Of a stretch of DNA of 57,992 nt, positions 1,200 through 47,225 are shown one piece after another. Every line of letters begins with the position of its first letter. The stretch's first letter is position 1. The stretch lies in IMG/VR virus record IMGVR_UViG_3300031754_000006, positions 1 through 57,992 of that record. One strand, given 5' to 3'. A program made the position numbers and the translations under genes. The notes beneath the pieces were generated by a model. It was not told where the DNA came from. It did not search any database and was given only the letters and a program-made list of their open reading frames with translations. The stretch comes from a virus (Duplodnaviria; Caudoviricetes).

Positions 1200-2808
1200 T
1201 GTGTACTCCTGAGACGATATTAGAGCTAACGATCCCGCCCACGCCCACCAAACGCGCGCCATCAGTCGCAATAGAGAAAAAATCCTCTGTGGTGGTGCTG
1301 ACCGTAGCCCATGCCCCTACCCCATTCGCATTCGTGAACGTCCCCGCCGTGCCGTTCATGACGAATAGACTAGCGACCGAATCCCATACCGCCGAATCCG
1401 GCACCACACCGATCGCTGACTGCGTATTGTAGGTGAGCCCATCCGTCGATAGGATGGCATTACCCGATACGTCCGAGACGATGACCCGTGAGCCGTTCGT
1501 CACAAGCGAAGACCCGTCCAGGTTGGCCGGTGGCGTGTGCGCAGTCCAGGTCACTCCGGTAGGCGAGCTATAGATATTCCCCACCCCACTCGGGGCAATG
1601 ACGAACAGAGACAGCCCGGAGGCCCACACCGCGCCTGAGAATGCTCCGCTCCCGCTCGTAAGCCGTGCTGTCCAGGTTGCCCCGTCCGTAGACGTCCAGG
1701 TTTTCCCATTGCCATAGCCGGCTGCGACAAAAGTCGAGTTGCCCCATGCAATGGCTGCTGAGCCACTGCCGCCCGCACCCGGGCCCGCATGCGATGTCCA
1801 CGTAACGCCATCCGTGCTTGTCGCGCTGAGCCCGTTAGAGCTGGCCACAACCTCTCCACCGGCCACCAGAAGCGCCCCACTCCAGGCTAGGGACGTCCAG
1901 TTACCCGCAGGCATCGTGCGTGCCGTCCAGGTCACCCCATCCGGCGATGTCGCCGCTAGCCCATTCCCCGACCCATCTGTACCTATCGATACGAACAGGC
2001 TGAGGCTCGACGCCCAAACCACCGCGTTATACGTGTCAGCGCTCGTTCCAGGCATATTGTGATCTGCCCAGTAAGCGCTCGTATATGTAAATCCGTTGTG
2101 TAACGTTCCAGGCAGCGCCCCTGGATTCGTTACCACCACGTCCACCGCGCCCACCGTATGCGCTGGACTCGTTACCGCAATCGTGGTGCTAGTGATCGTC
2201 CCAGCCGTGGCTGCTGTACCTCCAAATGTAACCGTAGCTCCCGCTAGAAAATTAGTGCCCGTGATAGTGGTGGACGTACCACCTGCGATCGGCCCGTTAT
2301 TCGGCGACAGGCTGATCGGATTCGCAGTAGGCGCAGACGCATCGAACAGAATGGACGTCGTGGCTGGCGAGTTAGGCACCGGAAACTGATAAGGGAAGTA
2401 ATACAGTCCCGATCCGATCTCGGTAAACCCTGGCTGTGTCAGGCTCGCCAGCGTATTGAGGTCATCGTATAGCAAGAACTGCGGCGCAATCCCGATAGCC
2501 GCGTCCCCGAAATCCACCACTTCGCGGATCGCACCTGTATTCGTATTGATCGGCTGCGGAGTGACCACCAAAGGAATGCTTACACCGCCTGCAGTGACCT
2601 TTAGGACAACTCTGGTTGTCTGGGGCGAGCTGGACAGCGGAAAGTTGATATCGAAGTAATAGATCCCGTCCGCAACTTCATACACCACCGGCTGCGTCAG
2701 GCTTATAAGCGTGTCAAGGTCTTTGTATTGCAGGAACGTAGGCAGCAGACCCGTATTCATGGGCCCGAAATCCACCACCTGCCTACCCTGTGTGCGGAAT
2801 TGGACCAT
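1192..2808 (-). CDS. virion adhesin / tail appendage: duplicated N-terminal module, IPT/TIG Ig-like domain, beta-propeller
   Basis: SLSPNNGPIAGGTSTTITGTNF...VDVVVTNP (IPT/TIG); repeated S-x-D-G-x-T-W Asp-box motifs. Confidence 0.75.
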   Translation of the reverse strand: MVQFRTQGRQVVDFGPMNTGLLPTFLQYKDLDTLISLTQPVVYEVADGIYYFDINFPLSSSPQTTRVVLKVTAGGVSIPLVVTPQPINTNTGAIREVVDFGDAAIGIAPQFLLYDDLNTLASLTQPGFTEIGSGLYYFPYQFPVPNSPATTSILFDASAPTANPISLSPNNGPIAGGTSTTITGTNFLAGATVTFGGTAATAGTITSTTIAVTSPAHTVGAVDVVVTNPGALPGTLHNGFTYTSAYWADHNMPGTSADTYNAVVWASSLSLFVSIGTDGSGNGLAATSPDGVTWTARTMPAGNWTSLAWSGALLVAGGEVVASSNGLSATSTDGVTWTSHAGPGAGGSGSAAIAWGNSTFVAAGYGNGKTWTSTDGATWTARLTSGSGAFSGAVWASGLSLFVIAPSGVGNIYSSPTGVTWTAHTPPANLDGSSLVTNGSRVIVSDVSGNAILSTDGLTYNTQSAIGVVPDSAVWDSVASLFVMNGTAGTFTNANGVGAWATVSTTTEDFFSIATDGARLVGVGGIVSSNIVSGVHIG

Positions 2809-13718: not shown

Positions 13719-14231
13719 TTATCCGCCTCTAGGCATCACGCTGGAGGTCTTGGGCAGGGACGCCATGACACGGGCTGCGTTGATGGCTAGACGTATGCGC
13801 TTGATCGTTGTCGTGAGACGCATGGCTATCTGTTGGTTGGAGAGCCCCTGTGCGTGCAGGTTCAGGATATTGCGGTTCAGGATGGGGAGGCGGTCGAATT
13901 GGGGGGAGCATTGGAAGTGCTCCATGCGGCGGTAATACTCTGCGCGGTAGTCACTCACGCGCATCTGTCCTGGGGCCGGTTCGGGAACCTCGGGGGATAG
14001 CGAGGCGGCAGCCATCTCTAGGGACTTCGCATCCCCGTCGATACATACGGACTCGCCTTGACGGATATGCTTTGTAATGCGACCCCCCTGTATCAGTATC
14101 CGGGCGGGGCTGAAACTGAATCCGGCTATCACCCCGGCTTGACGTAGACTCTCAAGTGTATCAGCTAAGGTGTCTGGGGCAATGGCGCGTTCTAGGGGCT
14201 CTGCTTGGAGGACCATCACGCCGTTGCCCAT
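13719..14231 (-). CDS. protein with C-terminal LuxR/sigma-4-like HTH (possible late regulator)
   Basis: LPILNRNILNLHAQGLSNQQIAMRL; GAGGTG RBS before ATG 14231. Confidence 0.55.
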   Translation of the reverse strand: MGNGVMVLQAEPLERAIAPDTLADTLESLRQAGVIAGFSFSPARILIQGGRITKHIRQGESVCIDGDAKSLEMAAASLSPEVPEPAPGQMRVSDYRAEYYRRMEHFQCSPQFDRLPILNRNILNLHAQGLSNQQIAMRLTTTIKRIRLAINAARVMASLPKTSSVMPRGG

Positions 14232-14252
14232 ATGCACCTCACTCGACACCCT

Positions 14253-14316
14253 GTGACAAAAAGCCCCTGGCCAAGGGCTAGGCTGGTAGCCTAGCACCGT
14301 GGAAGGGGCTTGTCAC
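14253..14316 (-). terminator. nested stem-loop with U-tract, overlapping a sigma70-like promoter
   Basis: Minus strand: AAGCCCCT/AGGGGCTT outer stem, GCTAGGCT/AGCCTAGC inner stem, TTTTT; contains GTGACA-N17-TAGGCT with TGn. Confidence 0.55.
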
Positions 14317-14859: not shown

Positions 14860-14895
14860 GCCCCTTACACATGTGCAGTACCATATGTAAGGGGC
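14860..14895 (-). terminator. hairpin closing array 2
   Basis: GCCCCTTACA (14860-14869) / TGTAAGGGGC (14886-14895), followed by TTT on minus strand. Confidence 0.65.
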
Positions 14896-15298
14896 GCCTT
14901 GCTTTACTCGCCCTTGCACGTCCGCTCCGGGCCTTGCCTGCCTTGCCCATCCCCGCTTTACCACCCCTGACCTTGCCTGACCTCACCTGACCTTGCCTGC
15001 TGCGTTTAGCCTGTCCCTACCAAGCCAACCCAAGCCGGGCCAAGCCTGCTCTGCTACGCCTGTCCTTGCCCCTCCAGACCTTTCCTTACGCTGCCTGCCT
15101 TGCCTGCACTACCACGCCGATCCATGCCTAGCCGATCCGCGCCTTGCCTGCTCTGCCGTCCCGAGTTTGGCCGTTCCATTCTCGGCTCTGCCTGCATTGC
15201 CAGCCCTGTCCAAGCCTCTCCACTCACAGCCTCGCCTGCTTAGCCCAGCCTATCCGTACCTAACCGATCTCGACTTTGCCTGCCTTGCCCCACTGCTA
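14893..15298 (-). ncRNA. orphan GGN-NN pentamer array (candidate guide-RNA array 2)
   Basis: Delimiters (CCTGC on +) start at 15279, 15235, 15191, 15147, 15103, 15094, 15045, 14996, 14937; spacings 44,44,44,44,9,49,49,59, all 5n+4. Confidence 0.8.
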
Positions 15299-15502
15299 GG
15301 GCTCACGGATCATCTGCATGGTTGTCCACGCTGCCAGTGAGCCTTCTATGTCTTCACGCGTCAGAGCCGGGTAATCCTCTAGGAGGGTTTCTATCGACTC
15401 TCCCTTGCGAAGCCTCCTGGCCACAAACTCCAAATGGATACGGGTCCCCTCAAAGACTGGCTCACCTCCCTGCACCTTCGGATTACATACTATCGCCTTC
15501 AT
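15296..15502 (-). CDS. DUF433-family protein
   Basis: NPKVQGGEPVFEGTRI...GESIETLLEDYPALTREDI. Confidence 0.85.
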   Translation of the reverse strand: MKAIVCNPKVQGGEPVFEGTRIHLEFVARRLRKGESIETLLEDYPALTREDIEGSLAAWTTMQMIREP

Positions 15503-16276: not shown

Positions 16277-16470
16277 TCGGTTCCTCCTTTACCTCTTCCG
16301 CTTGGTATTATCCGACTACAGTTGGCCTTACATATCCACCATTCCTTACTAAGCCTCCGTGATTCTACCGGACGACCTCCACACTCAGGACAGCGCCCCC
16401 GTAGTACCCTCCAGAGCCTACCAACCCAATTGGTTCCGGGCCCCTTCGGCGAGCTGTTTTTAGCCATCAC
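16264..16470 (-). CDS. small Zn-ribbon protein
   Basis: CPECG...CKANC. Confidence 0.45.
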   Translation of the reverse strand: MMAKNSSPKGPGTNWVGRLWRVLRGRCPECGGRPVESRRLSKEWWICKANCSRIIPSGRGKGGTEWSG

Positions 16471-17408
16471 GCGGTTCCTCCGTTGTAATTCAGCAGCGGC
16501 GCATCACCCAAGATCCTATCACGTGCCATGGTCGCATATTCTGGGTTTAGCTCGATACCTATAAATGAACGGCCATGACGAGCAGCCACCATCCCTACAG
16601 TACCCGTGCCTGCGAAGGGGTCCAATACCATGGAGCCGGGCGCAGATCCTGCTAGGACACAGCGCTCTGCTAAGTCCCAAGGCATGGTAGCGAAGTGGGC
16701 GCCTGCGAATGGCTTAGCCGTTATCGTCCAGACGCTGCGCGCGTTGCGGCTCTCCTTAACCTCTGTGTCGTGCTGAGTGAACCCAAATGCGGTAGCACCA
16801 TAATCCCCCTTAGCTCCATTCTTGGCCGTATCCGGATCCGTTGCATAAACGATCCGGCCTGCATGTAACGATGGCTCCATGATCGCATCCGCGTCATAGA
16901 AGTAGGTTGCTGACTTAGTCAGTAGGAACACATATTCATGGGCCTTAGTTGGGCGGTCGGTGACTGATTCAGGCATCGGATTAGGCTTGTGCCAAATCAC
17001 ATCCGAGCGCAGCCACCATCCATCAGCCTGTAGCGCAAGAGCCACGCGCCAAGGGATACCGATCAAATCCTTTGGTTTGATGCCTTCGCCTTGTTTGGTC
17101 GGCAACCCCACCGCTCTATATGCCGTATCTTGTTTTCCGGCCCCACCACTATTAGCCGCCCCCGCATATGAATCCCCAAGGTTAAGCCAGACCACGCCGT
17201 CGGGGCGCAAGATACGCCGCACCTCACGGAATACTTCTACCATCCTGGCTACGTATTCCCCGGGCGTGGATTCCATTCCGAGCTGATCCGCGTGCCCGTA
17301 ATCCCGTAGCCCCCAGTAGGGCGGGCTCGTCACGCAGCACTGCACGACCTCATCGGGTAGAGTGCGCATCACAGCGAGGCAGTCACCTTCCAGGATTTTC
17401 CAGGTCAC
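16467..17408 (-). CDS. DNA amino-methyltransferase (beta class, SPPY, probably m4C)
   Basis: GDCL, TSPPYW, HFATMP, LDPFAGTGT, IGIELN; GTG start 17408. Confidence 0.92.
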   Translation of the reverse strand: MTWKILEGDCLAVMRTLPDEVVQCCVTSPPYWGLRDYGHADQLGMESTPGEYVARMVEVFREVRRILRPDGVVWLNLGDSYAGAANSGGAGKQDTAYRAVGLPTKQGEGIKPKDLIGIPWRVALALQADGWWLRSDVIWHKPNPMPESVTDRPTKAHEYVFLLTKSATYFYDADAIMEPSLHAGRIVYATDPDTAKNGAKGDYGATAFGFTQHDTEVKESRNARSVWTITAKPFAGAHFATMPWDLAERCVLAGSAPGSMVLDPFAGTGTVGMVAARHGRSFIGIELNPEYATMARDRILGDAPLLNYNGGTA

Positions 17409-17490
17409 GACACCCCTTCTGGAATCGCTCCTAGCGAACGGAAAGGGGTCGCCCTTGCGTTTTCTCCCCTCGGCTGTCCCGGAGTGGCGG

Positions 17491-17658
17491 CTACCACAGC
17501 CACCCCCCTTTTTCACGGGTCTGCACGACCCGACCGAGCACGCCGTAATCGGGGGGCCTTTTCGGGGGCAGCAGTTCCCGGATACGGGCCCGCAGCTTCC
17601 ACGCGGCCAAGCCGGCAGGGAATAGGAATAGCCCGGCAAAGAGCAGGGCCAGGGTCAC
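17491..17658 (-). CDS. small membrane-anchored protein
   Basis: hydrophobic N-terminus; GTGA overlap. Confidence 0.4.
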   Translation of the reverse strand: MTLALLFAGLFLFPAGLAAWKLRARIRELLPPKRPPDYGVLGRVVQTREKGGWLW

Positions 17659-18618: not shown

Positions 18619-20007
18619 CTAGAACAGTGCCAGCTGATTAACATCCCTTTCGGGCTGCTCTAGACTTCCAATGTCTCGGCTGCGGGGCGCGTTCAGGGCC
18701 AAGTCAATGCGCCGCTCAGCGATGGCCGCGTAACCCGCGTCTCTGTCGATCCCGATGAAGTTGAAGCCGCACCGCACCGCTGCGCATCCGGTAGTGCCCG
18801 ATCCGAGGAACGGATCCAGCACCGTGCCTCCGGATGGCGTGACGAGCTTACAGAGCCATTCCATGAGCGCGATGGGCTTGACGGTCGGATGGACGTTGCG
18901 CGCTCCGCCGTTGCGTCCTGCGCCAGCGCGAGGGGAGTTGGATCCAAGCGTGCCCGGGGGCGTGTCGGTATTGATAACCCCAGGCTCGACATCCCAGAGC
19001 CCCGCGTCCCTCTCTCCACGGCTGGGCTTGGCCACGTAACGGAAGACGGGAAAGAATCGGGAGGCACCGCCGGAGTCGCCACCACCTACGCCAGATCTGG
19101 TGCCATATTTGCCGTAGATGCCAGCAGTGGTATCGCTAGGCGCGTTAGCGCTTGGGATGCCGCTCGTCAGCTCCCCGCTCTGCTCGTTCAGTTCCCGCAC
19201 CGGGCAGCCGCGCATGCACTCGCGACCGCACTCCGGATCATGGGTGAAGATGAGGTTAGGGGGCCAGCGGCCGGCGGAAGGATCCCACCCGGGCGGCAGA
19301 CCGCCACCCACGGAACCGCCGACATATGCATCCTTGGAGAATCCTCGTTCCCCGCCCGATCGCCTGGCGAGCGCCGCTAGGTCTTCACCGGGCGCCGTCC
19401 CTACCCTGCACGCCTCAATGTTCAGCCCCCCCGTCCCGTAGGCGAGCACGTTCGCGGCCACCGTCCCGATGAGCGGGCGCCTGGCGAGCACGATCGGCTC
19501 CCGGGCGGGCTTGAGAGCGGTGCCCCATCCGTCGTAGGCGGTAGCCGGGGCGGTAGCCGGGGCGTGCACGGTGGCGCCCAGGATGGAGTTTCCGCCATGC
19601 GTGCACGCCGAGCCACCGGGACAGGTACCTCCACGCTGTGGCCCGATGACCTGCCGCTCGGCTCCGAGCGCATCATCGATCGCCTTCGAGACGTTCAGGC
19701 TCTTGGGGAAGCCCGAGCCGAACACCCAGTCGATCGAGTCCCGGATCTCGAAGCCCGCATCCTCGATGGCGCACGCCATGCGGTGATATGTCCGCGGGCC
19801 GCCGAAAGCCAAGAGATGGCCTCCAGGCTTGAGCACGCGCAAAACCTCCCGCCACATCTCAACCGAATAAGCGATCCCGCTTGCATCCCAACTCTTGCCC
19901 ATGAATCCAAGTTCATAGGGGGGATCAGTTACTACCGAATCAACTGAGGCATCAGGCATCGCCCTCATAGCCGCGATGCAGTCGGATACGATAATCCGAT
20001 GGCTCAC
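18619..20007 (-). CDS. DNA amino-methyltransferase (beta class, DPPY, probably m6A)
   Basis: VTDPPY, GFPKS, GRWPPN, HPTVKP, LDPFLGSGTT. Confidence 0.92.
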   Translation of the reverse strand: MSHRIIVSDCIAAMRAMPDASVDSVVTDPPYELGFMGKSWDASGIAYSVEMWREVLRVLKPGGHLLAFGGPRTYHRMACAIEDAGFEIRDSIDWVFGSGFPKSLNVSKAIDDALGAERQVIGPQRGGTCPGGSACTHGGNSILGATVHAPATAPATAYDGWGTALKPAREPIVLARRPLIGTVAANVLAYGTGGLNIEACRVGTAPGEDLAALARRSGGERGFSKDAYVGGSVGGGLPPGWDPSAGRWPPNLIFTHDPECGRECMRGCPVRELNEQSGELTSGIPSANAPSDTTAGIYGKYGTRSGVGGGDSGGASRFFPVFRYVAKPSRGERDAGLWDVEPGVINTDTPPGTLGSNSPRAGAGRNGGARNVHPTVKPIALMEWLCKLVTPSGGTVLDPFLGSGTTGCAAVRCGFNFIGIDRDAGYAAIAERRIDLALNAPRSRDIGSLEQPERDVNQLALF

Positions 20008-22731: not shown

Positions 22732-22994
22732 AGCTGGAGACCATCCAGGCCATCTGCGAGGTGGCCAACGAAGCCGAGGCCCATGCTGTCCTGGACAGCT
22801 ACTGGAACGACCTCCAGTGCCTCGGGGGCCGTGTGCTGCCCCCTGCCTTTGGCCGCCCTGAGTGGCGAGTGCAAGTCTTCTTCCCGGCCGAGGGCGTGCC
22901 CAAGGAGCTGCCCCTCCCTGCCGGTGTAACCCGCCTCACCATCCCTGCCGCCCTGCGGCGCATCTACGGAATCTTGGAGGTCGTGTGTCCGTGA
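22728..22994 (+). CDS. hypothetical protein
   Basis: ATGA overlap. Confidence 0.55.
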   Translation: MKLETIQAICEVANEAEAHAVLDSYWNDLQCLGGRVLPPAFGRPEWRVQVFFPAEGVPKELPLPAGVTRLTIPAALRRIYGILEVVCP

Positions 22995-23206
22995 GCGAGC
23001 CCAGCAAATTCGATATGTGCGTCTGCGGCTGGACTCGGGTGCAGCACTGCGCCAAGGAGCCCCATCCCTGCTCGCACACGGTCTGTCGCTGTAAGGGATT
23101 CACACTCGCAAAGGGCAGTAATTACGATCTTACCGTCACTGGCGCGGTACGCAATAACCGCGACCTAGAAAATGCATCCTATCACACGCACGGCGGCTAT
23201 CACTAA
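22991..23206 (+). CDS. Cys/His-rich mini-protein, paralogue 1
   Basis: FDMCVCGWTRVQHCAKEPHPCSHTVCRCKGF; GTG 22991. Confidence 0.65.
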   Translation: MSEPSKFDMCVCGWTRVQHCAKEPHPCSHTVCRCKGFTLAKGSNYDLTVTGAVRNNRDLENASYHTHGGYH

Positions 23207-23661: not shown

Positions 23662-24369
23662 ATGGCATTCGCAGCTAAGCAAAAGGTCGAGATTACTCCC
23701 CCCAATCTCCAGCTAGTCAAGTTCCGGATCATCGGCACTAGTCCACTCGTCCAAAACAAGTTCAGCAGCCGCGCCCTGGAGGCCATGGCCGCCGATCAGC
23801 GCCTCGGCTCCGCCGCCGTGAAGCGCAAGAAGCGCGAGCCCAAGGACTTCGACCTGGCCGTCAAGGAGGCCACCCACTACGCCGATGCCGGCTGGTGCGG
23901 CCTCCCGGCCTCGGCCTTCCGCACGGGCCTCATCTCCACTTGCCGCCTCCTGGGTTTTCCGATGACTTTGGCCAAATTATCGGTATTTGTCGTCGCCGAT
24001 GGCTACGAGCGCGACAGATTCGGAGTGACGCCACTCGTCCGGATCACCAAGGGCAAGCCCGAGCGCACTGACTTTGCCGTGCGCAACGCCACGGGCGTAG
24101 CCGATATCCGCCCCCGCCCCATGTGGCCCGAAGGCTGGGAGGCGGTCATCTCCATTCGCTTCGACGCTGATCAGTTCACCGTGCAGGACGTGACCAACCT
24201 GCTATCCCGCATGGGCGAGCAGGTGGGGATCGGCGCGGGGCGGCACGACTCCAAGGACTCGGCCGGCATGGGCTGGGGCTGCTTCCGGATCGCCGATACC
24301 GTGGGCGGGGAGGCGCCTACCAAGAAGACCAGGGCGCCCAAGGAAGCAGTACAGGAGGAGGTTGGCTAA
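23662..24369 (+). CDS. stand-alone Cas7/RAMP-like RNA-binding protein (Vipr-like)
   Basis: N-terminal strand FRIIGTSPL, PASAFRTGL (RAMP P-x-S-x-x-K/R-G-like), C-terminal Gly-rich loop GIGAGR...GMGWGCF; no other cas genes. Confidence 0.75.
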   Translation: MAFAAKQKVEITPPNLQLVKFRIIGTSPLVQNKFSSRALEAMAADQRLGSAAVKRKKREPKDFDLAVKEATHYADAGWCGLPASAFRTGLISTCRLLGFPMTLAKLSVFVVADGYERDRFGVTPLVRITKGKPERTDFAVRNATGVADIRPRPMWPEGWEAVISIRFDADQFTVQDVTNLLSRMGEQVGIGAGRHDSKDSAGMGWGCFRIADTVGGEAPTKKTRAPKEAVQEEVG

Positions 24370-24843
24370 ATGCCAAGCGCAGCAGCCAAGCGGCTCAAGC
24401 GGGCCCGTACCCAGTCCATCCATGATGAGCTGGCCAACCTTTACCGATTGCATGGAGGTCTCAAGCCCGACGTGATCGTTGCCTGGGCTAAGAATAACCC
24501 TGCCAGCATCCTGCATTCTAAGTTTACGTGGGATGACAGTGAGGCTGCCAAGTCTTACCGCCTTTGGCAGGCGCGGCAGATTATCACAGAAGTAGAGGTG
24601 CAATACCCGGACGGCCATATACGGCGTGTGTATGTTTCGCCGATGGAGTCTCGCGGCACCCGAGGATATGCGACCTTGGTTGACGTTTTGTCCGATGAGG
24701 AGCGGCGAATTCAATATCTGCAACAGGCATATTCTGAGCTGGAGCGCACCGCCGCAAAATATCAGGACCTTGTGGAATTTGCTGGAGTCCGCAGGGCGAT
24801 TCGGGCTGCCGGCAGGAAACTGCCGAAGGCCAACAAGGAGTAG
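24370..24843 (+). CDS. accessory protein of the RAMP-array locus
   Basis: LHSKFTWDDSEAAKSYRLWQARQII motif; abuts the RAMP stop, and its own stop begins the array. Confidence 0.7.
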   Translation: MPSAAAKRLKRARTQSIHDELANLYRLHGGLKPDVIVAWAKNNPASILHSKFTWDDSEAAKSYRLWQARQIITEVEVQYPDGHIRRVYVSPMESRGTRGYATLVDVLSDEERRIQYLQQAYSELERTAAKYQDLVEFAGVRRAIRAAGRKLPKANKE

Positions 24844-25680
24844 CAGTAGGGGCAAGGTTGAGCTGCGCAGGCTAGGCGCGGAGAAGTCTGGTGAGGACGA
24901 GTGTGGAGCAGCGCGGTCGGGTTAGGCCAAGCAGGCGAGGAATGGACCGGTAACGAGAGGCAGAGATAAGCATGGCAGGTGGAGCAAGGACGTGTAAAGC
25001 CCGGGGCGGGCTGGCACGGCAGGCTGAACCTGGATAGGGTGGGCGAGGTGTGGTCGAGCCTGGACAAGCAGGCGTAGCATCGTACGGGTCGGCAAGGATA
25101 GGCGAGGCCAAGCAGGCCGGGAGTGGTAAGGCTCGCAAGGGCAGGGCTGCGCTGCGCGCGGAAGAGCAGGCAGAGCTAGGATTTGTACGGCATGGAGAGG
25201 CCCGGAGAAGCAAAGCAGGCAAGGAGCGGTAAGGGTCGGAGCCGTTAGGCAGAGCAGGCTTGGCTCGGGTCGGCTTGGGCAGGGTCGGAGCGGCTGGGCA
25301 ATTCAATGCAGGTTAAGCGTGGTGAAGCAGAGGGAGGCAAGGACTGGAACGGGATGGCTGAGCAATGCAGGCACGGACAGGTGAGGTATGGCACGGCACG
25401 GCACGCTAGGGCAAAGCAGGCACGGACAGGACCGGTAAGGTATGGAGCGGCACGTCGAGGCAAAGCAGGTCGAGCTTGGACCGGGATGGCGCGGTCAGGT
25501 GAAGCGTGGCGGGGCCAGGTCTGGCAGGCGTAGCAAGCAGTAAAGGGCAAGGCCAGGAGTGGACGCGATAGGCCAGGTGCAGCAGGCGCGGATCGGCAAA
25601 GCAGAGTGCGGGTCGGACGAGCACGGCAGGCGCGGATAGGTAAGGAAGAGGTCGGCGAGGGGAAGCACAGCAGGCTAAGG
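24841..25680 (+). ncRNA. GGN-NN pentamer array (candidate guide-RNA array 1)
   Basis: 17 GCAGG(C/T) delimiters from 24867 to 25670; spacings 64,44,44,49,44,54,49,39,54,59,49,49,59,58,44,44 (15/16 are 5n+4). Confidence 0.85.
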
Positions 25681-25683
25681 AAT

Positions 25684-25760
25684 CCGTCAGCGCAATTGTG
25701 CATTGACGGCCAGGGGAGTCCGTAAACGACGATATCGCCCCGTAGCGGACTCCCCGCTTT
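25684..25760 (+). terminator. double hairpin closing array 1
   Basis: CCGTCA/TGACGG (25684-25709) and GGGGAGTCCG/CGGACTCCCC (25713-25755), then GCTTT. Confidence 0.6.
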
Positions 25761-25775
25761 ACCAGGAAGAAACCG

Positions 25776-26048
25776 ATGGCAGATAAAAAGCTTACCCCCT
25801 TCGATATGTGCGAGTGCGGTTGGACGCGCGTCCAGCACTGCGCCAGGGCTCCGCATCGGTGTACGCACCCGGGATGCTATTGCGTGGCGTTCAAGCTCTC
25901 TTCTGAGCCTGAACTTGACCGGCTGGATGAAGCCATCCGCACCACAAAGGCCCTGGCGCGGGCGCGGTTCTTTCCTGGGCTCGGACTGCGCGCAGATAGT
26001 ATCGATTACTTCATCAAGTGCGGTATTGAGCCCCTGGAGGAAAGCTAG
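25776..26048 (+). CDS. Cys/His-rich mini-protein, paralogue 2
   Basis: FDMCECGWTRVQHCARAPHRCTHPGCYCVAF. Confidence 0.7.
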   Translation: MADKKLTPFDMCECGWTRVQHCARAPHRCTHPGCYCVAFKLSSEPELDRLDEAIRTTKALARARFFPGLGLRADSIDYFIKCGIEPLEES

Positions 26049-26050
26049 CC

Positions 26051-26305
26051 ATGGCCGAAAGCCCATTTGATATGTGTCTCTGTGGCTGGAGCAGGATCCA
26101 GCACTGCGCTACCCCTCCGCATCCCTGCACACATGAGCGCTGTTGGTGTAAGGCATTTTGCTTCGCCCCCAATCACCCCCCCAAAGTTTCGGCTATCAAG
26201 GATGAGATGGATATGGCAGGCGCCAGGTTTTTTGACAGGTTTGGGTTGTACAGCGCTCCAGACGCAAAAACGCTGATCGCGCAAGGATTTACGCCTAAAG
26301 ACTAA
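26051..26305 (+). CDS. Cys/His-rich mini-protein, paralogue 3
   Basis: FDMCLCGWSRIQHCATPPHPCTHERCWCKAF. Confidence 0.7.
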   Translation: MAESPFDMCLCGWSRIQHCATPPHPCTHERCWCKAFCFAPNHPPKVSAIKDEMDMAGARFFDRFGLYSAPDAKTLIAQGFTPKD

Positions 26306-26404
26306 TCAACTTGCCGCCCCTTTCCCAGGGGGGTGGCCCGGGTGGCAGGTTAATTCCTCCGGATGACGCCTGCTGCCCGGTTTTACCTACGGAGTAACCG
26401 AACG

Positions 26405-26674
26405 ATGAGCAAAGATCGCAAAGACACCGATGACCCGAGGGCATCCGATCTGTGCGCCGTGTGTCTGGGATCAGCCGACAATAACGGCGCCCCCAGGTGG
26501 CGTCACTGCGCCAAGCCTCCCCATAAGTGCAGCGTTTGTGACGTATGCCCAGGATTCCAGTACGGCGGCCGAGCACAGGCTATCCATCGCGCGCGGTGGG
26601 CCGAACACGTAGAGCATTACGTGGAGAAGGGCCATCCCCGCGAACAGGTCGAGTTGGCCATCAAAGGTGAATAA
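26405..26674 (+). CDS. Cys/His-rich mini-protein, divergent paralogue 4
   Basis: DLCAVC...RHCAKPPHKCSVCDVCPGF; ATG 26405 with GGAG. Confidence 0.6.
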   Translation: MSKDRKDTDDPRASDLCAVCLGSADNNGAPRWRHCAKPPHKCSVCDVCPGFQYGGRAQAIHRARWAEHVEHYVEKGHPREQVELAIKGE

Positions 26675-26870
26675 CATGCGCCTATCTGAGACCAAGCCGG
26701 AAGACGATCCCGGGCTGGCCATGCCAAAGGGGCAGGAGCCCCACAAAACGGACGTTTGTGAGTGTACCGGCTTTAGGGATGAGCACTGCCTAGAAAAACC
26801 ACATCCGTGTCCTTGTGGCTGTAAGGCATTTAGATTTAGATCGAGATGGATAACCTTTGAAGGTGAGTGA
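26667..26870 (+). CDS. Cys/His-rich mini-protein, paralogue 5
   Basis: DVCECTGFRDEHCLEKPHPCPCGCKAF. Confidence 0.6.
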   Translation: MNNMRLSETKPEDDPGLAMPKGQEPHKTDVCECTGFRDEHCLEKPHPCPCGCKAFRFRSRWITFEGE

Positions 26871-29041: not shown

Positions 29042-30229
29042 ATGAAGGTCCTACTGATCGCAAAGCCCCCCATGGGGGATAAGGTAGCCGATGCGCTGCG
29101 CGCCCTCGGAGTAGACCTCGACTACAAACGAGGCATCTCCGAGCATGCCATGGCGAGCGCGGTACGGCCTGGCGTTCAGTGGGTCTTGGCCATGAATACC
29201 GAAGGCCAGGGCGTGGCCATCAAGGAGCGCGCCCGAAAATGCCAGGCCCGCTTTGTCTCCATTCCTCCCAGCTGGACCTTCACCGAAAGAAAGCTGCAGG
29301 AAGAGCACTTCTTTGCTGCCTTGACCGTCGAGCACACGCGGCAAGAGCGGGACGCCAAGCTCATCGGCGGCCAGGGCAACGGGCTGACTTATCGCCCCTT
29401 CGAGAATCTGGCTGCGCCCGAGCCTGAGCCTTCTGAGGAATTCATCGAAGCTGCGGCGGACGAGTTGGAGAATGTCCCGGCAAAGGTTGAAACCATCGAA
29501 GTCACGGTCACTGACGTTTCGCCCCCGCAGCCAGTCCCACCCATTCCTCGGCCGGTCACTCCGCCGAGACTGCAGCACCCACCAATTGCAGTCCCCAAGG
29601 AGTCACCGAAGATGCCTGCACCCTCCACTGAAGGGCTTAGCCATGCTGAGTTACTGAAATCCCCTAACAAGCGCATCCGCGAAGGAGCCGAAAAGCGCCA
29701 ATTCCTGATCGCTCTCTTCGACGCCGTCCCGGGCTATCCCCCCAACGATGCCCAGAAGATGGTTGAGAAGCGATGGCATAGCGGGATCTCTGCCTCCGAG
29801 CTGTACTACATCCGCCGCCTTCGAGCCGAAATGGCTGGGGTTGAAGTCACTACCTACCCCACCAAGCAAGTAGCCAACCGGGGAACACCCTCCCTGAACG
29901 AACAGCATGAGCGCTCCATGAATCACGCCAAGCGCGCATCCGATGCCATTCCCCGGGGCTCTCTAGCTCACTTGGCCAATGGCTCGGTCAAGCCAACGAA
30001 GCCCTTCAAGATGCCCCCGCCGCCCTCGGCCGCTCCCGAGGAATCCGCCGAGCCCGAGACCGTCTTAGCCGACGGCGGTAGCCTGCCACCGGACGTCGAG
30101 GCGGCAGCCGAGTTGCTGGCCAAGGCCATGCGTGACGCCAACCTCCTGGGCTGGATCACCGTCAAGCCCGGAGAATACGAGGCGGAGATCCAGGTCATGC
30201 GTAAGCTGGCCATCAAGTCCAAGGTATGA
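29042..30229 (+). CDS. multidomain hypothetical protein with Pro-rich linkers
   Basis: 395 aa, GGGAG RBS. Confidence 0.65.
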   Translation: MKVLLIAKPPMGDKVADALRALGVDLDYKRGISEHAMASAVRPGVQWVLAMNTEGQGVAIKERARKCQARFVSIPPSWTFTERKLQEEHFFAALTVEHTRQERDAKLIGGQGNGLTYRPFENLAAPEPEPSEEFIEAAADELENVPAKVETIEVTVTDVSPPQPVPPIPRPVTPPRLQHPPIAVPKESPKMPAPSTEGLSHAELLKSPNKRIREGAEKRQFLIALFDAVPGYPPNDAQKMVEKRWHSGISASELYYIRRLRAEMAGVEVTTYPTKQVANRGTPSLNEQHERSMNHAKRASDAIPRGSLAHLANGSVKPTKPFKMPPPPSAAPEESAEPETVLADGGSLPPDVEAAAELLAKAMRDANLLGWITVKPGEYEAEIQVMRKLAIKSKV

Positions 30230-31818
30230 TCATGGCCCCTCAGTGCGCCATCAAGAAATGCCGCAAGCCCGCGCGGCGCAATAAAAAGGGTAACTATTGC
30301 TGGGACCACTACCACTCAGACGGATGGCTGCCGTGTGATGGTGCCGGCGATGATTGTCCAGTCCACAGAGATCCGATCGTTGTCCGACCTCGAAGCAACC
30401 AAAGGGAGCCCGTAATGACAGAAGAGCAGAAGTTGATCACTGAAATGCGACAGAAGTTGGAGCAGCAGAAGGCCATTATCGACCGCCTCACCGAGGTCCC
30501 GCAGCGCGTGGGCGTCGTCCTGCGCTCTCGTGAAGACTCCACGATGTTGGCCCTCGGCTCCGAGATCGTCCACTCCAAAGCCAAGCTTCCTAAGGACCTC
30601 GCCCCCGGCACCTTCTTCTCCGTTCCGCCCGAGACCGGCGGTATCGGCGACGAGATCGAGCCCATGGCCCTCGGCTCCGTTCAGGCCGTGACCAAAGTCC
30701 TGCCTGATGGCTTCCTGGAGATCGGCGAGGATTTCTCTTCGTCTGTCATCCTGGCCTCGCCGCGCATGGGCAAGGTGAAGGTGGGGGACCGCGTCGTCTG
30801 CGATCGAGGCAACTTTATCGCCGTCAAGAACCTTGGCCCGGCCACCAAGGGCTATTCTGTGCCCGAGGATGAAATCAGCATCACCTGGGCTGACGTCGGC
30901 GGCCTGGAGGAGGCCAAGCAACAGCTCCGCGAAGCAATCGAGCTGCCCGTGAAAAACCCCGAGCTGTTCAAGAAGTACAAGCAAGCTCCGATGAAGGGCG
31001 TGCTTCTGTACGGCCCCCCGGGCGTGGGTAAGACCCTGCTTGCCAAGGCGTCCGTCAATGCCCTGGCCAAGCTCCACGGCAAAGAAGCCATGGGCTCGGG
31101 CTTCATCTACGTCAAGGGTCCCGAGATCCTGTCCAAGTTTGTGGGCGAATCTGAGGCCACTATCCGGGGTCTCTTCCACCGCGCCCGCGAGCACTTCGAG
31201 CGGCATGCTTTCCCCGCTATCATCTTCATCGATGAGGCAGACGCTATCCTCGGCCGCCGTGGCATGGGCATTTCCTCGGATATCGATCGCACGATCGTGC
31301 CTCAATTCCTCTCCGAGATGGATGGCCTGGAGTCCAAGGGAGCGCCTATCATGCTCCTCTCCACCAACCGTCCCGATTCCCTCGATCCCGCTGTGGTCCG
31401 CGATGGCCGTATCGACCGCAAGATCGAGATCACCCGGCCCAAGCCGAAGGATGCCCTGGCCATCTTCAAGATCCATCTCAAGGGCCGCCCGGTGGCGGAA
31501 AGCGGTCTGCCCGAGCACGCCACGACCGAGTTTTTCTGCGATACCAAGGTCGTGGCCAAGGTCTCCTGTACCGACGGGAGCACGCACAACCTGAACCTGG
31601 CCCACATTATCAACGGCGCCATGATTGCAGGAACGGTCAACCGGGCCACCTCTCTTGCCATGCAGCGCGAACTAGACGGCGGAAAGGCAGCCGGGCTCTG
31701 CAAGGATGACCTTTCGCAGGCCATCAAGGAGGCCACACACCAGGCCAAGCGGCTGGACCTCGACGATGACGTGAAAGCCCTCGTCCAGGGCAGGGAAGTG
31801 GTGCAGATCGCAGCCTAA
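30226..31818 (+). CDS. ARC/Mpa/PAN-like proteasomal AAA+ ATPase (alternative start 30415)
   Basis: coiled coil, OB-like region, WADVGGL, ELP..PELF, GPPGVGKT, pore loop KFVGE, FIDEAD, TNRPD.LDPAVVRDGRIDRKI. Confidence 0.8.
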   Translation: MIMAPQCAIKKCRKPARRNKKGNYCWDHYHSDGWLPCDGAGDDCPVHRDPIVVRPRSNQREPVMTEEQKLITEMRQKLEQQKAIIDRLTEVPQRVGVVLRSREDSTMLALGSEIVHSKAKLPKDLAPGTFFSVPPETGGIGDEIEPMALGSVQAVTKVLPDGFLEIGEDFSSSVILASPRMGKVKVGDRVVCDRGNFIAVKNLGPATKGYSVPEDEISITWADVGGLEEAKQQLREAIELPVKNPELFKKYKQAPMKGVLLYGPPGVGKTLLAKASVNALAKLHGKEAMGSGFIYVKGPEILSKFVGESEATIRGLFHRAREHFERHAFPAIIFIDEADAILGRRGMGISSDIDRTIVPQFLSEMDGLESKGAPIMLLSTNRPDSLDPAVVRDGRIDRKIEITRPKPKDALAIFKIHLKGRPVAESGLPEHATTEFFCDTKVVAKVSCTDGSTHNLNLAHIINGAMIAGTVNRATSLAMQRELDGGKAAGLCKDDLSQAIKEATHQAKRLDLDDDVKALVQGREVVQIAA

Positions 31819-31826
31819 CGATTCAC

Positions 31827-31901
31827 GACCCATGTAGCTCAACGGTAAAGCCCAGCCCGCCTTCAAGCTGGAGACTGCGGGTTCAAGTCCCGCCGTGGGC
31901 C
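31827..31901 (+). tRNA. aberrant tRNA-like element (10-nt anticodon loop, possibly Glu-TTC derived)
   Basis: acceptor ACCCATG/CGTGGGC, TAGCTCAA.GGTA D-arm, CCAGC/GCTGG stem, GCGGG-TTCAAGT-CCCGC T-arm; no encoded CCA. Confidence 0.6.
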
Positions 31902-45078: not shown

Positions 45079-47225
45079 TATGTAAACTCCGTTACGATCG
45101 CATTGCCATTGGCGGCCACCCAGATCGCGTTTATGGCCCCCGTATAGCCGAAGGGCACCTCATAATAGGAGGGCACCGCTCCAGCTGCATTCATGGCCAC
45201 CGTATAGGCCGAGCTAGACGCTGTAGCTCCCATGTTAATATAGGCAATCGACGTGGAACTATTAATGATTGTAGCCCCCTTGCGCGCCGTATTGGAGGCC
45301 AGGATCGCTGTACTAGAAGTGGCGGCAGCCGTGCTCGTAACCGTGCCCGTCGGAGCCCGAATATTGCGAACCCGCAGATAACCGGCCAAATCGACCGAGA
45401 CCAAAACCTGATCGCCTTCGGTATCGGTAGGGTCGGCGGCATTCGCAAGCGCCGGGATCACTCCCACCTGCGTTGCAGCTGGCGCCGCGTTATTATTTGT
45501 CAGGTTGCCAGCCACTGTACGAGTACCAGTCCCGCTATTGGCTGTCACCGTTCCGGTGACTGTAATCGTGGCAGCCGATGCATCGACCCGAAGCGCTCCA
45601 CCTGTAGTCAGTGAGAGCGGCGAAGTCTGGGCAGTCGTATATGTCGGGGCTGCCGTGGTCACAGCGCCGAGCGTAAGGCCACCGCTCTGCCCAGACGTTG
45701 TAGACCCCTGCGCTACCTGTAGCCCAGTGACCGAGGCATTGAGCGCCAAGCTACCCGATGTGCCGATATTGGCTGTGACCGTGCCCGATACTGGCTGCGT
45801 CGTACCGGATGCATCAGTACGCAGAGCCCCCGCCGTTGTCAGTGATAGGGGACTGCTCTGCGCAGTCGTATAGGTGGGCGCAGCCGTTGTGACTGCACCC
45901 AGGACGAGATCACCCTTCTGCCCTGAAGTAGTTGAGCCTTGCGCGATCTGGAGGCCCGTCACGCTGGCATCAAGCGCCAGAGAACCCGATGTCCCTATAT
46001 TAGCAGTGACAGTCCCGCTAACGGGCTGCGTACTGCCTGAGGCATCCGTACGTAATGCCCCCGCAGTCGTAAGGCTTAGAGGCGATGTCTGCGCGGTGGT
46101 GTAAGTTGGTGCAGCGGTAGTCACCGCCCCCTGAATAAGGGGCCCCGTCTCGCCTGAAGTTGTCGATCCCTGGGCGCTGTTGAGTTTGGCGACAGTCGCA
46201 TCTAAGGCAAGCGTGCCTGCCGTACCGATATTCGCCGTCACTGTCCCAGACACAGGCTGCGTCGATGCCGAAGCATCCGTACGCAACGCGCCTGCCGTGG
46301 TGAGAGACAAGGGCGATGTCTGAGCCGTGGTATACGTCGGCGCAGCCGTAGTAACCGCACCCTGCACCAACGGGCCAGTTTCACCTGACGTCGTGGATCC
46401 TTGTGCGCTATTCAGCTTTGCAACCGTCGCGTCCAGCGCCAAGGAACCCGACGTCCCGATATTCGCCGTGACCGTGCCAGATGTGACAGTCACTGCCGGG
46501 CTGTTGGTGACAATGGTGCGCGTATTCCCTGAAAGATCCAGGGAGCTAAGCACCATATCCCCTTCTGTGTAGGTCGGGGCAGCCGCATTAGCGATACCGA
46601 CCAAGGCACCGATGTTATTCGTGCCCGGAGCTGCGGCGTTGTTAGTCTTATTGCCAGTAACGACTCCGCCGCCGCCACCTCCGCCCGACGTGCGCAGGTT
46701 GCCAGCGAGATCCGTAGACAACAGGACCTGATCGCCCTCCGTATACGTAGGAGCTGCCGCATTCGCAATCGCAGGCAGGACACCTAGGTTATTATTACTC
46801 GGAGCGGCGTTGTTATTGGTTAGCGTGCCAGTGACCGCCCCACCACCCCCACCGCCTCCGCTGCCAGGCAGCATGGATGCTGCTGCGGTGGCCACAATGA
46901 ACCCTTGCGCCGTGCCGCTCGTATAAGCAGAAACACGGACCCTGACTTGCTGCACCCCACCCATCACGCTGATACCAATCTCAGTCGCGGAGTTGGGGTT
47001 CGTCAGGATCAGCGATGACGATTGAGTGCCTGTGACATCGATAAACTTAGTTGCTACCCAGGTAGTACCATTGTCGATCGAGGTCTCGGGCGTCAGTGTC
47101 GCAGCGAGCGTGCCGGCAGCAAGATGGAATCCGCAGCCATATCGGCCAGCCAGGATGATATTGACAGTGGCATTAGCAGCCCCGAGGATTCCAGTTGCAC
47201 CGATGAGATTATTGTCGGAGTACAT
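45078..47225 (-). CDS. repeat-rich tail fibre/spike-like protein
   Basis: four 77-aa tandem repeats plus three NNAAP...TEGD repeats; C-terminal ILASNTARKG domain. Confidence 0.75.
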   Translation of the reverse strand: MYSDNNLIGATGILGAANATVNIILAGRYGCGFHLAAGTLAATLTPETSIDNGTTWVATKFIDVTGTQSSSLILTNPNSATEIGISVMGGVQQVRVRVSAYTSGTAQGFIVATAAASMLPGSGGGGGGGAVTGTLTNNNAAPSNNNLGVLPAIANAAAPTYTEGDQVLLSTDLAGNLRTSGGGGGGGVVTGNKTNNAAAPGTNNIGALVGIANAAAPTYTEGDMVLSSLDLSGNTRTIVTNSPAVTVTSGTVTANIGTSGSLALDATVAKLNSAQGSTTSGETGPLVQGAVTTAAPTYTTAQTSPLSLTTAGALRTDASASTQPVSGTVTANIGTAGTLALDATVAKLNSAQGSTTSGETGPLIQGAVTTAAPTYTTAQTSPLSLTTAGALRTDASGSTQPVSGTVTANIGTSGSLALDASVTGLQIAQGSTTSGQKGDLVLGAVTTAAPTYTTAQSSPLSLTTAGALRTDASGTTQPVSGTVTANIGTSGSLALNASVTGLQVAQGSTTSGQSGGLTLGAVTTAAPTYTTAQTSPLSLTTGGALRVDASAATITVTGTVTANSGTGTRTVAGNLTNNNAAPAATQVGVIPALANAADPTDTEGDQVLVSVDLAGYLRVRNIRAPTGTVTSTAAATSSTAILASNTARKGATIINSSTSIAYINMGATASSSAYTVAMNAAGAVPSYYEVPFGYTGAINAIWVAANGNAIVTEFT
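45553..46476 (-). repeat. 4 x 231-bp intragenic tandem repeat (boundaries approximate)
   Basis: equivalent ANIG codons at 46458, 46227, 45996, 45765. Confidence 0.8.

Follow-up and report, generated by a model that had tools for sequence, protein, structure and literature searches.

The closest described relatives of the locus analyzed here, a gene pair followed by a long pentamer array in the viral record IMGVR_UViG_3300031754_000006, are the VIPR (Viral Interference Programmable Repeat) systems, RNA-guided DNA silencers related to CRISPR that were described in 2026 (10.64898/2026.04.26.720920, PMC13142463). As set out in the available text of that preprint, VIPR systems are phage-borne and include a lone RAMP protein (Vipr) and a small accessory gene (vap) but no cas genes, and each of their guide RNAs (vrRNAs) has between 9 and 16 YNNGG repeats; NNNGG is among the variants that also occur, and internal degeneracy is frequent (10.64898/2026.04.26.720920). 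One Vipr protomer is assigned to each repeat, a double-stranded DNA target is read as NN-x-NN-x, and the reported effect is transcriptional silencing of rival phages and satellites, according to the accessible parts of the VIPR preprints (10.64898/2026.04.26.720920, 10.64898/2026.04.26.720927). Seven types are listed there, and the array forms include 'staggered arrays with overlapping vrRNAs', whose vrRNAs, as the caption to fig. S18 has it, stem 'from 1 nt overlapping positions', the end of one marking the start of the next (10.64898/2026.04.26.720920). For the ribozyme and single-vrRNA forms there is confirmation by sequencing of small RNAs, and the available text reports none for the staggered form (10.64898/2026.04.26.720920). 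Experimental work to date rests mainly on Escherichia phage SUSP1 and on a Pseudomonas fulva prophage system. Further preprints, likewise available in part, describe solo vrRNAs in satellites and VIPR-null phages together with guides of SUSP1-like phages that target early vipr codons (10.64898/2026.10.15.759431), and the recovery of VIPR arrays by a language-model survey (10.64898/2026.10.21.760802). The window analyzed here is the 57,992-base contig of the record, taken alone. The locus that it carries is very probably a phage-borne VIPR system of the staggered-array form.

A preliminary description of the window, made from its letters, had pointed to a 235-amino acid protein with RAMP-like motifs and to a 157-amino acid gene abutting it, and both open reading frames (ORFs) are present as described (Table 1). 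The first of them, Vipr, contains the motifs FRIIGTSPL, PASAFRTG and GIGAGRHDSKDSAGMGWGCF. Neither Pfam nor NCBIfam gave an accepted match for Vipr, a single-sequence search of the PDB produced 0 matches, and PHROGs returned only families of unknown function. The family comprises 3696 database clusters at E<=1e-3, every source name among the listed matches being 'hypothetical protein', and 45 residues are invariant across 42 aligned sequences. The structure predicted for Vipr on the basis of 42 homologues (predicted local distance difference test score, pLDDT, 84.7) was then informative. The Foldseek comparison with Cas7 and Csm3 that had been suggested as a check gave 87 PDB matches at E<=1e-3, headed by Csm3, type VII Cas7 and Cas7-11, and VIA-align and Foldseek together placed the model among Cas7, Csm3 and Cmr4. 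The predicted fold is thus squarely that of a Cas7-type RAMP.

A profile built from the 42 family members was compared with 177,635 PDB sequences, and its best match was 36pp_D, the 'SUSP1 Vipr protein' (E 0.065). Alignment of the family with the 195-amino acid SUSP1 gene (KT454805.2, 28474-29061) by hhalign gave a probability of 81.4% and a P of 1.2e-5 over 52 columns, which begin where the thumb ends and extend to the G-loop. Within these columns R152 is paired with R138 of SUSP1 Vipr in the thumb and R194 with R179 in the G-loop. Both SUSP1 arginines contact the GGY bases and are functional according to the available text of the cryo-electron microscopy work (10.64898/2026.04.26.720927). 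A tblastn search with the Vipr of this phage did not reach SUSP1.

The ORFs are followed by a G-skewed tract of 5-nucleotide (nt) periodicity that ends in hairpins, another element of the preliminary description that held up under statistical analysis (Table 1). On the plus strand, 393 of the 917 bases between 24844 and 25760 are G (43%). Self-identity of the tract was 0.436 at lag 5, compared with 0.20-0.26 at lags 1-3 and 7, and the periodicity statistic was 0.212, compared with an average of 0.00 and a highest value of 0.054 in 1000 shuffles (z 12.8). When the contig was scanned with sliding windows of 400 nt, 11 of 576 exceeded a periodicity of 0.12, all of them in this tract (array 1) or in a tract at 14.7-15.3 kb. 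The latter holds a second, minus-strand array (array 2), which the preliminary description had missed.

Both arrays were parsed by dynamic programming as runs of pentamers ending in GG, with steps of 4 versus 5 bases. The units of array 1 consist of 7-12 NNNGG pentamers, each unit closed by a conserved (C)AAAG-CAGG joint that constitutes a step of 4 bases instead of 5 and that can equally be written as a 4-nt linker plus GCAGG. As parsed, 16 units have at least 7 pentamers, and roughly 17-19 are obtained when degenerate joints are counted. The spacings between consecutive GCAGG sequences in array 1 were 39-64 nt, and 15 of 18 equaled 4 modulo 5, two of the exceptions being in-frame internal GCAGG pentamers. 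Array 2 has the same GCAGG joints (8 of 8 spacings equal 4 modulo 5), which brings the pooled count to 23 of 26. The joint reads ...GGCAG|GCNN.... When the repeats are read as GGYNN, the G that ends a unit's last repeat (AGCAG or GGCAG) also belongs to the GG that opens the following unit. This is the one-base overlap published for the staggered form. The same parser, applied to SUSP1 as a positive control, recovered its four published vrRNAs, one upstream and three downstream.

Array 1, downstream of vap, contains 157 phased pentamers, and array 2 contains 74. Position 4 is G at a frequency of 0.76-0.80 and position 5 at 0.94-0.97, while the NN positions make use of all 16 dinucleotides. The preliminary description had considered GGN to be constant; the GG stood, but the third base proved weak, with a pyrimidine opening 95 of the 157 pentamers of array 1 and 44 of the 74 of array 2 (~60%). 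Because the Y is weak, the repeat is best described as the NNNGG variant. No tails separate the units, which abut with only the ~9-nt joint between them, and two array 1 units folded alone were unstructured (z +0.57 and -0.51). The closing hairpins of array 1, which none of 200 shuffles equaled in stability, are terminator-like and lack a clear U-tract. Simple promoter and terminator scans gave nothing useful at array 1 or array 2, and the terminator scan did not call these hairpins.

Array 2 lies in a leftward operon, on the strand opposite to the vipr-vap pair of the phage and 8 kb from it. A 68-amino acid ORF (15296-15502, minus strand; phrog_11928), itself located after a RusA gene, ends just before the array, which opens with the leader of array 1, TAGCAGT(A)GGGGCAAGG. 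No homologues of the 68-amino acid ORF were found in the related loci.

The association of the three components is maintained among relatives. A tract with 5-nt periodicity was found within 4 kb in 78 of 80 viral contigs encoding a relative of Vipr (50-79% identity); the two contigs that lack it have short downstream flanks. The tracts are G-rich on the vipr strand in nearly all cases, and their units are most often punctuated by the CAGG/GCAGG joint. Of 129 loci, 114 have a homologue of the 157-amino acid ORF adjoining vipr, usually directly downstream; once metagenome loci are added, the count is 174 of 209. This vap-like protein had no accepted match in Pfam or NCBIfam, Foldseek found nothing in the PDB at E<=1e-3, and the Atlas returned only unnamed viral clusters. 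Its layout is possibly a winged-helix-like N-terminal part with helices after it. The identification of this ORF as vap1 of SUSP1 was ruled out, the proteins being unrelated. Members of the Vipr family were found in metagenome-assembled genomes of Planctomycetota, Verrucomicrobiota, Cyanobacteria, Pseudomonadota and others, and homologues are encoded by Cyanophage Cy-LDV1 (56% identity) and, at ~30% identity, by phages of Mycobacterium (25 records) and Gordonia (5 records).

The reading code was examined at the level of the clade by comparing 600 unique guides from 210 sources with 1.43 Mb of array-masked loci. Matches at 90% or more of the NN positions numbered 15 when one base was skipped per step, versus 3, 2 and 3 for skips of 0, 2 and 3, and all five perfect matches, which come from two guides, were obtained with the 1-nt skip. 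Three guides account for seven of the 15 matches that lie within vipr genes of rivals, near residue 11 or in the region of residues 161-170, and every one of these vipr-gene matches places the skipped base on the wobble position. They occur on either strand. One guide (L031:3828-3867) is exactly one unit of 8 pentamers between two GCAGG joints, and it matches 16 of 16 NN bases of the early vipr codons for IKPANIQT in four other loci (L027:4010, L033:2743, L059:4007 and L060:1870), where the wobble bases differ; against the vipr of its own locus (IRPANIQT) it reaches only 14 of 16. Since this guide fills a unit from joint to joint and matches throughout, such a unit behaves as one guide. Guides from two other loci (L076 and L046) match rival vipr genes near residues 161-170. 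These comparisons support the published 1-nt-skip code at the clade level and suggest that anti-vipr targeting of early codons is repeated in a different Vipr clade, the latter, like the behavior of a joint-to-joint unit as one guide, being a post hoc observation on few events.

The locus shares with the published staggered VIPR form a lone RAMP, a small accessory gene, a long GG-anchored pentamer tract without tails or ribozymes, the 1-base overlap, a location in a phage and the lack of cas genes; particular to this phage are the conserved (C)AAAG-CAGG joint, the weak Y and a vipr-less array on the other strand. The preliminary description had named VIPR as a match and had warned that the locus might be a new member rather than a new class. 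The match was correct, the published VIPR systems being assembled from the same set of parts (10.64898/2026.04.26.720920), and the warning was also appropriate. With the type II system of SUSP1 (KT454805.2, 27500-29510; PDB 36pp) the locus has in common the vipr-vap order, downstream guides, GG-ended pentamers and the aligned thumb and G-loop arginines, and in silico matches suggest the 1-nt-skip code and anti-vipr guides in this clade as in that of SUSP1. In contrast, the four vrRNAs of SUSP1 stand apart from one another, each with 13-16 TNNGG repeats and then a ~75-nt spacer holding a conserved tail, whereas here the guides abut without tails, the Vap protein is unrelated and the G-loop is 8 residues longer. 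Assignment to type II, with its tailed pseudoknot vrRNAs and vap1, was therefore rejected. Array 2 resembles solo vrRNAs in having no adjoining vipr, as do the guides of relatives in that their matches to rival vipr genes fall on early codons and in the 3′ part, but here the vipr-less array sits in a phage that keeps its own vipr-vap pair.

A Class 1 CRISPR-Cas system (types I, III, IV or VII) was considered and rejected. The preliminary description had noted neither cas genes nor CRISPR repeats, in agreement with our searches: PADLOC matched 0 cas models among the 64 ORFs of the contig, among which no Cas5/6/8/10/11 or adaptation genes were found, and no CRISPR-like direct repeats (at least 22 nt within 120 nt) were detected outside the pentamer tract. 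The sole CARF-like match by PADLOC, to the ORF at 13722-14297, was weak (E 2.6e-4), and Rfam detected only transfer RNA (tRNA) in the contig and no hammerhead. Vipr shares 9-17% sequence identity with the Class 1 Cas7 subunits (Csm3, Cmr4, type VII Cas7 and Cas7-11), which have a 6-nt step with 5 read bases, compared with the 5-nt step and 2 read bases here.

The system probably works in the manner of SUSP1. The vipr-vap operon would be transcribed rightward together with the array behind it, and the long G-rich transcript would yield ~17 guide RNAs of 7-12 pentamers, with ~8 more supplied by the array on the other strand. The one-base-short CAGG would mark each boundary at which the guides are excised, so that adjoining guides overlap by one G. 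Vipr protomers may bind the guide RNA and polymerize into a filament, one per pentamer, with the GG and the next base buried and the two variable bases exposed. The guide would then pair with double-stranded DNA in the pattern NN-x-NN-x, one base being passed over at each step, and the transcription of rival mobile elements would be blocked and their DNA silenced. Vap would probably be a nucleic-acid-binding helper. A nuclease-free reader of NN bases that advances by pentamers had been anticipated in the preliminary description, and this idea is consistent with the SUSP1 preprints, the predicted RAMP fold, the sequence link to SUSP1, the association of vap and arrays with vipr and the 1-nt-skip matches of the clade.

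A more elaborate version, which we consider rather unlikely, would make CAGG a self-contained punctuation that resets the register of Vipr and directs cutting into ~25 guides in the absence of tails, ribozymes or Cas6, the cut being made by Vipr, by the winged-helix-like Vap or by a host ribonuclease. The relaxed base after GG would in that case indicate a pocket, and perhaps a code, unlike those of SUSP1. Because the arrays sit in oppositely oriented operons, this version would also have the phage use one guide set at one time of infection and another set at another.

Several observations weigh against assigning the locus to VIPR in its published form. The sequence tie to SUSP1 Vipr is weak and partial, being confined to only 52 columns at 81% probability. 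D177 and W178 of the SUSP1 G-loop align to A192 and G193, and are thus unmatched in place, and the G-loop of this family has an 8-residue insertion that holds the nearly invariant W205; for these two reasons base recognition may differ in detail. The Y is weak where SUSP1 Vipr reads a pyrimidine in a dedicated pocket, and GG is intact in 113 of the 157 pentamers of array 1 and 59 of the 74 of array 2, which leaves 20-28% without it. The sequencing runs listed with the locus are one DNA run (a soil metagenome, probably the source) and no RNA run. Finally, the 24 parsed guides of this phage yielded no target above chance. Against the own 58-kb contig the mean best fraction was 0.753, compared with 0.757-0.762 for control skips, and against the 209 related loci (129 plus 80) matches were at chance level whichever of the four skip rules was applied. 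Counts were likewise near chance in five scans of viral contigs with exact patterns. At the protein level, comparison of the guides with 120 Vipr homologues gave one match of 6/8, which was not significant.

Some individual matches from the exact-pattern scans are given here as leads only. The unit at 25465 had one match, which extends to 21 of 22 NN bases in a viral contig of 14,099 bases (L130:1501-1532). It lies inside an 82-amino acid helix-turn-helix-like ORF (1489-1737, minus strand), is off the wobble phase and is accompanied by no match of another guide to that contig, so that it may be due to chance. The unit at 25416 had one match when the joint AA was included and six when it was not; of these six, two are in phase in a tail-fiber repeat peptide (L141 and L142) and one is in a portal-like ORF. 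Chance remains an explanation for the tail-fiber matches because the repeat motif is too common. The unit at 25254 had two AT-rich matches, and the single match of the unit at 24867 had an extension that agreed in 1 of 4.

Part of this evidence would also fit a VIPR system that is decaying or has shifted in function, with an intact protein and either drifting arrays or a different code (three variable bases, or another skip), to which the SUSP1 rules would not apply. A pyrimidine in only ~60% of the pentamers, GG intact in 72-80%, 24 guides of which none has a natural target and a G-loop unlike that of SUSP1 are all what such a system would display. Drift is nevertheless hard to reconcile with the retention of the register and the joint rule in 23 of 26 spacings or with 45 Vipr residues invariant across 42 sequences, and degeneracy and NNNGG variants are also frequent in published arrays, as far as the available text describes them (10.64898/2026.04.26.720920). 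A different code is disfavored by the clade comparison, in which the 1-nt skip beats the other skips, and a trial of the three-variable-base rule found nothing. We therefore regard this explanation as improbable. It is still less probable, and indeed highly so, that the system regulates the genes of the phage itself or acts on RNA, through translation or stability, instead of on rival DNA. The location of array 2 in a different operon could suit self-regulation, and Vipr filaments also pair with single-stranded RNA according to the accessible part of one preprint (10.64898/2026.04.26.720927); but the phage's own 58 kb matched its guides no better than the control skips did, the matches of the clade fall in the vipr genes of other phages on either strand, and the available text of the VIPR preprints reports no self-targets either and states that complete filaments need DNA (10.64898/2026.04.26.720920, 10.64898/2026.04.26.720927). 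The G-rich tracts could also act as DNA, for instance as G-quadruplex-prone sequence, as a packaging or replication signal or as a recombination hot spot, the RAMP-like gene being unrelated to them. Strong strand asymmetry, a GG every 5 nt and the existence of two tracts on opposite strands, each G-rich on the local coding strand, would be compatible with such a role. However, the tracts accompany vipr homologues in 78 of 80 viral loci of very different phages, the NN between the constant GG is hypervariable, the published RNA code yields matches of units to genes of rivals and both tracts end in strong hairpins typical of transcript ends, which makes a DNA-level role hardly credible. The staggered VIPR system thus remains the reading that we favor.

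Two proposals have been made for VIPR, that it is the ancestor of CRISPR effectors and that it can serve as a programmable DNA binder of compact size. The concept itself is unchanged by this locus, which represents a clean and complete case of the less studied staggered form, in a GC-rich soil phage and in a very large family. What it adds is a second array that lacks vipr, an accessory gene conserved beside vipr and unrelated to vap1, support for the 1-nt skip in the clade, and, in some relatives, guides directed against rival vipr genes in codon phase. These last results lend in silico support to the extension of the NNx code and of the vipr-against-vipr conflict to this clade. The tail-less guides, of ~45-60 nt each, could simplify multiplexing.

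Table 1. Coordinates of the components of the VIPR locus in the 57,992-base window.
Feature	Position	Strand	Description and evidence
vipr	23662-24369	+	235-amino acid ORF; predicted Cas7-like RAMP of a single domain; glycine-rich loop extended (GIGAGR...GMGWG)
vap-like accessory gene	24370-24843	+	157-amino acid ORF; first base directly after the vipr stop codon
Leader of array 1, TAGCAGT(A)GGGGCAAGG	24841-24862	+	Begins at the vap stop codon; sequence comparison
vrRNA array 1	24846-25690	+	~845 nt; ~17 staggered units by parse; periodicity z 12.8
Two closing hairpins of array 1	25684-25711, 25713-25755	+	Fold of -40.3 kcal/mol, z -4.3
vrRNA array 2, no adjoining vipr	14897-15293	-	8 units of 8-12 pentamers; parse; periodicity z 11.9
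14-bp hairpin closing array 2	14860-14895	-	Fold of -27 kcal/mol, z -4.4; 0 of 200 shuffles equally stable

The remaining genes identify the contig as that of a phage: they encode a major head protein, a portal, a large terminase, RusA, Gam, Erf, HNH nucleases and two DNA methyltransferases. The VIPR cassette is flanked on both sides by five small paralogous Cys/His-rich ORFs on the plus strand (22862-23206, 25776-26048, 26051-26305, 26363-26674 and 26667-26870), which carry a motif like C-x-C-G-W-x-R-x-x-H-C ... P-H-x-C ... C-x-C. Those searched had no PHROG match, and no homologues were found in the 209 related loci. A 715-amino acid tail-region protein (45081-47225, minus strand), also with no PHROG match, contains internal repeats of ~70 amino acids (GTVTANIGTSGSLALDA...TTAAPTYTTAQ) and glycine runs. 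The two DNA methyltransferases (16467-17639 and 18619-20007, minus strand) belong to phrog_67 (E 1e-73 and 1e-76) and probably guard the phage against host restriction. A 530-amino acid AAA+ ATPase (30226-31818, plus strand), which matches the PADLOC models TRIP13 (E 6e-18) and IetA (E 2.5e-16), is adjoined by a tRNA gene at 31828-31901.

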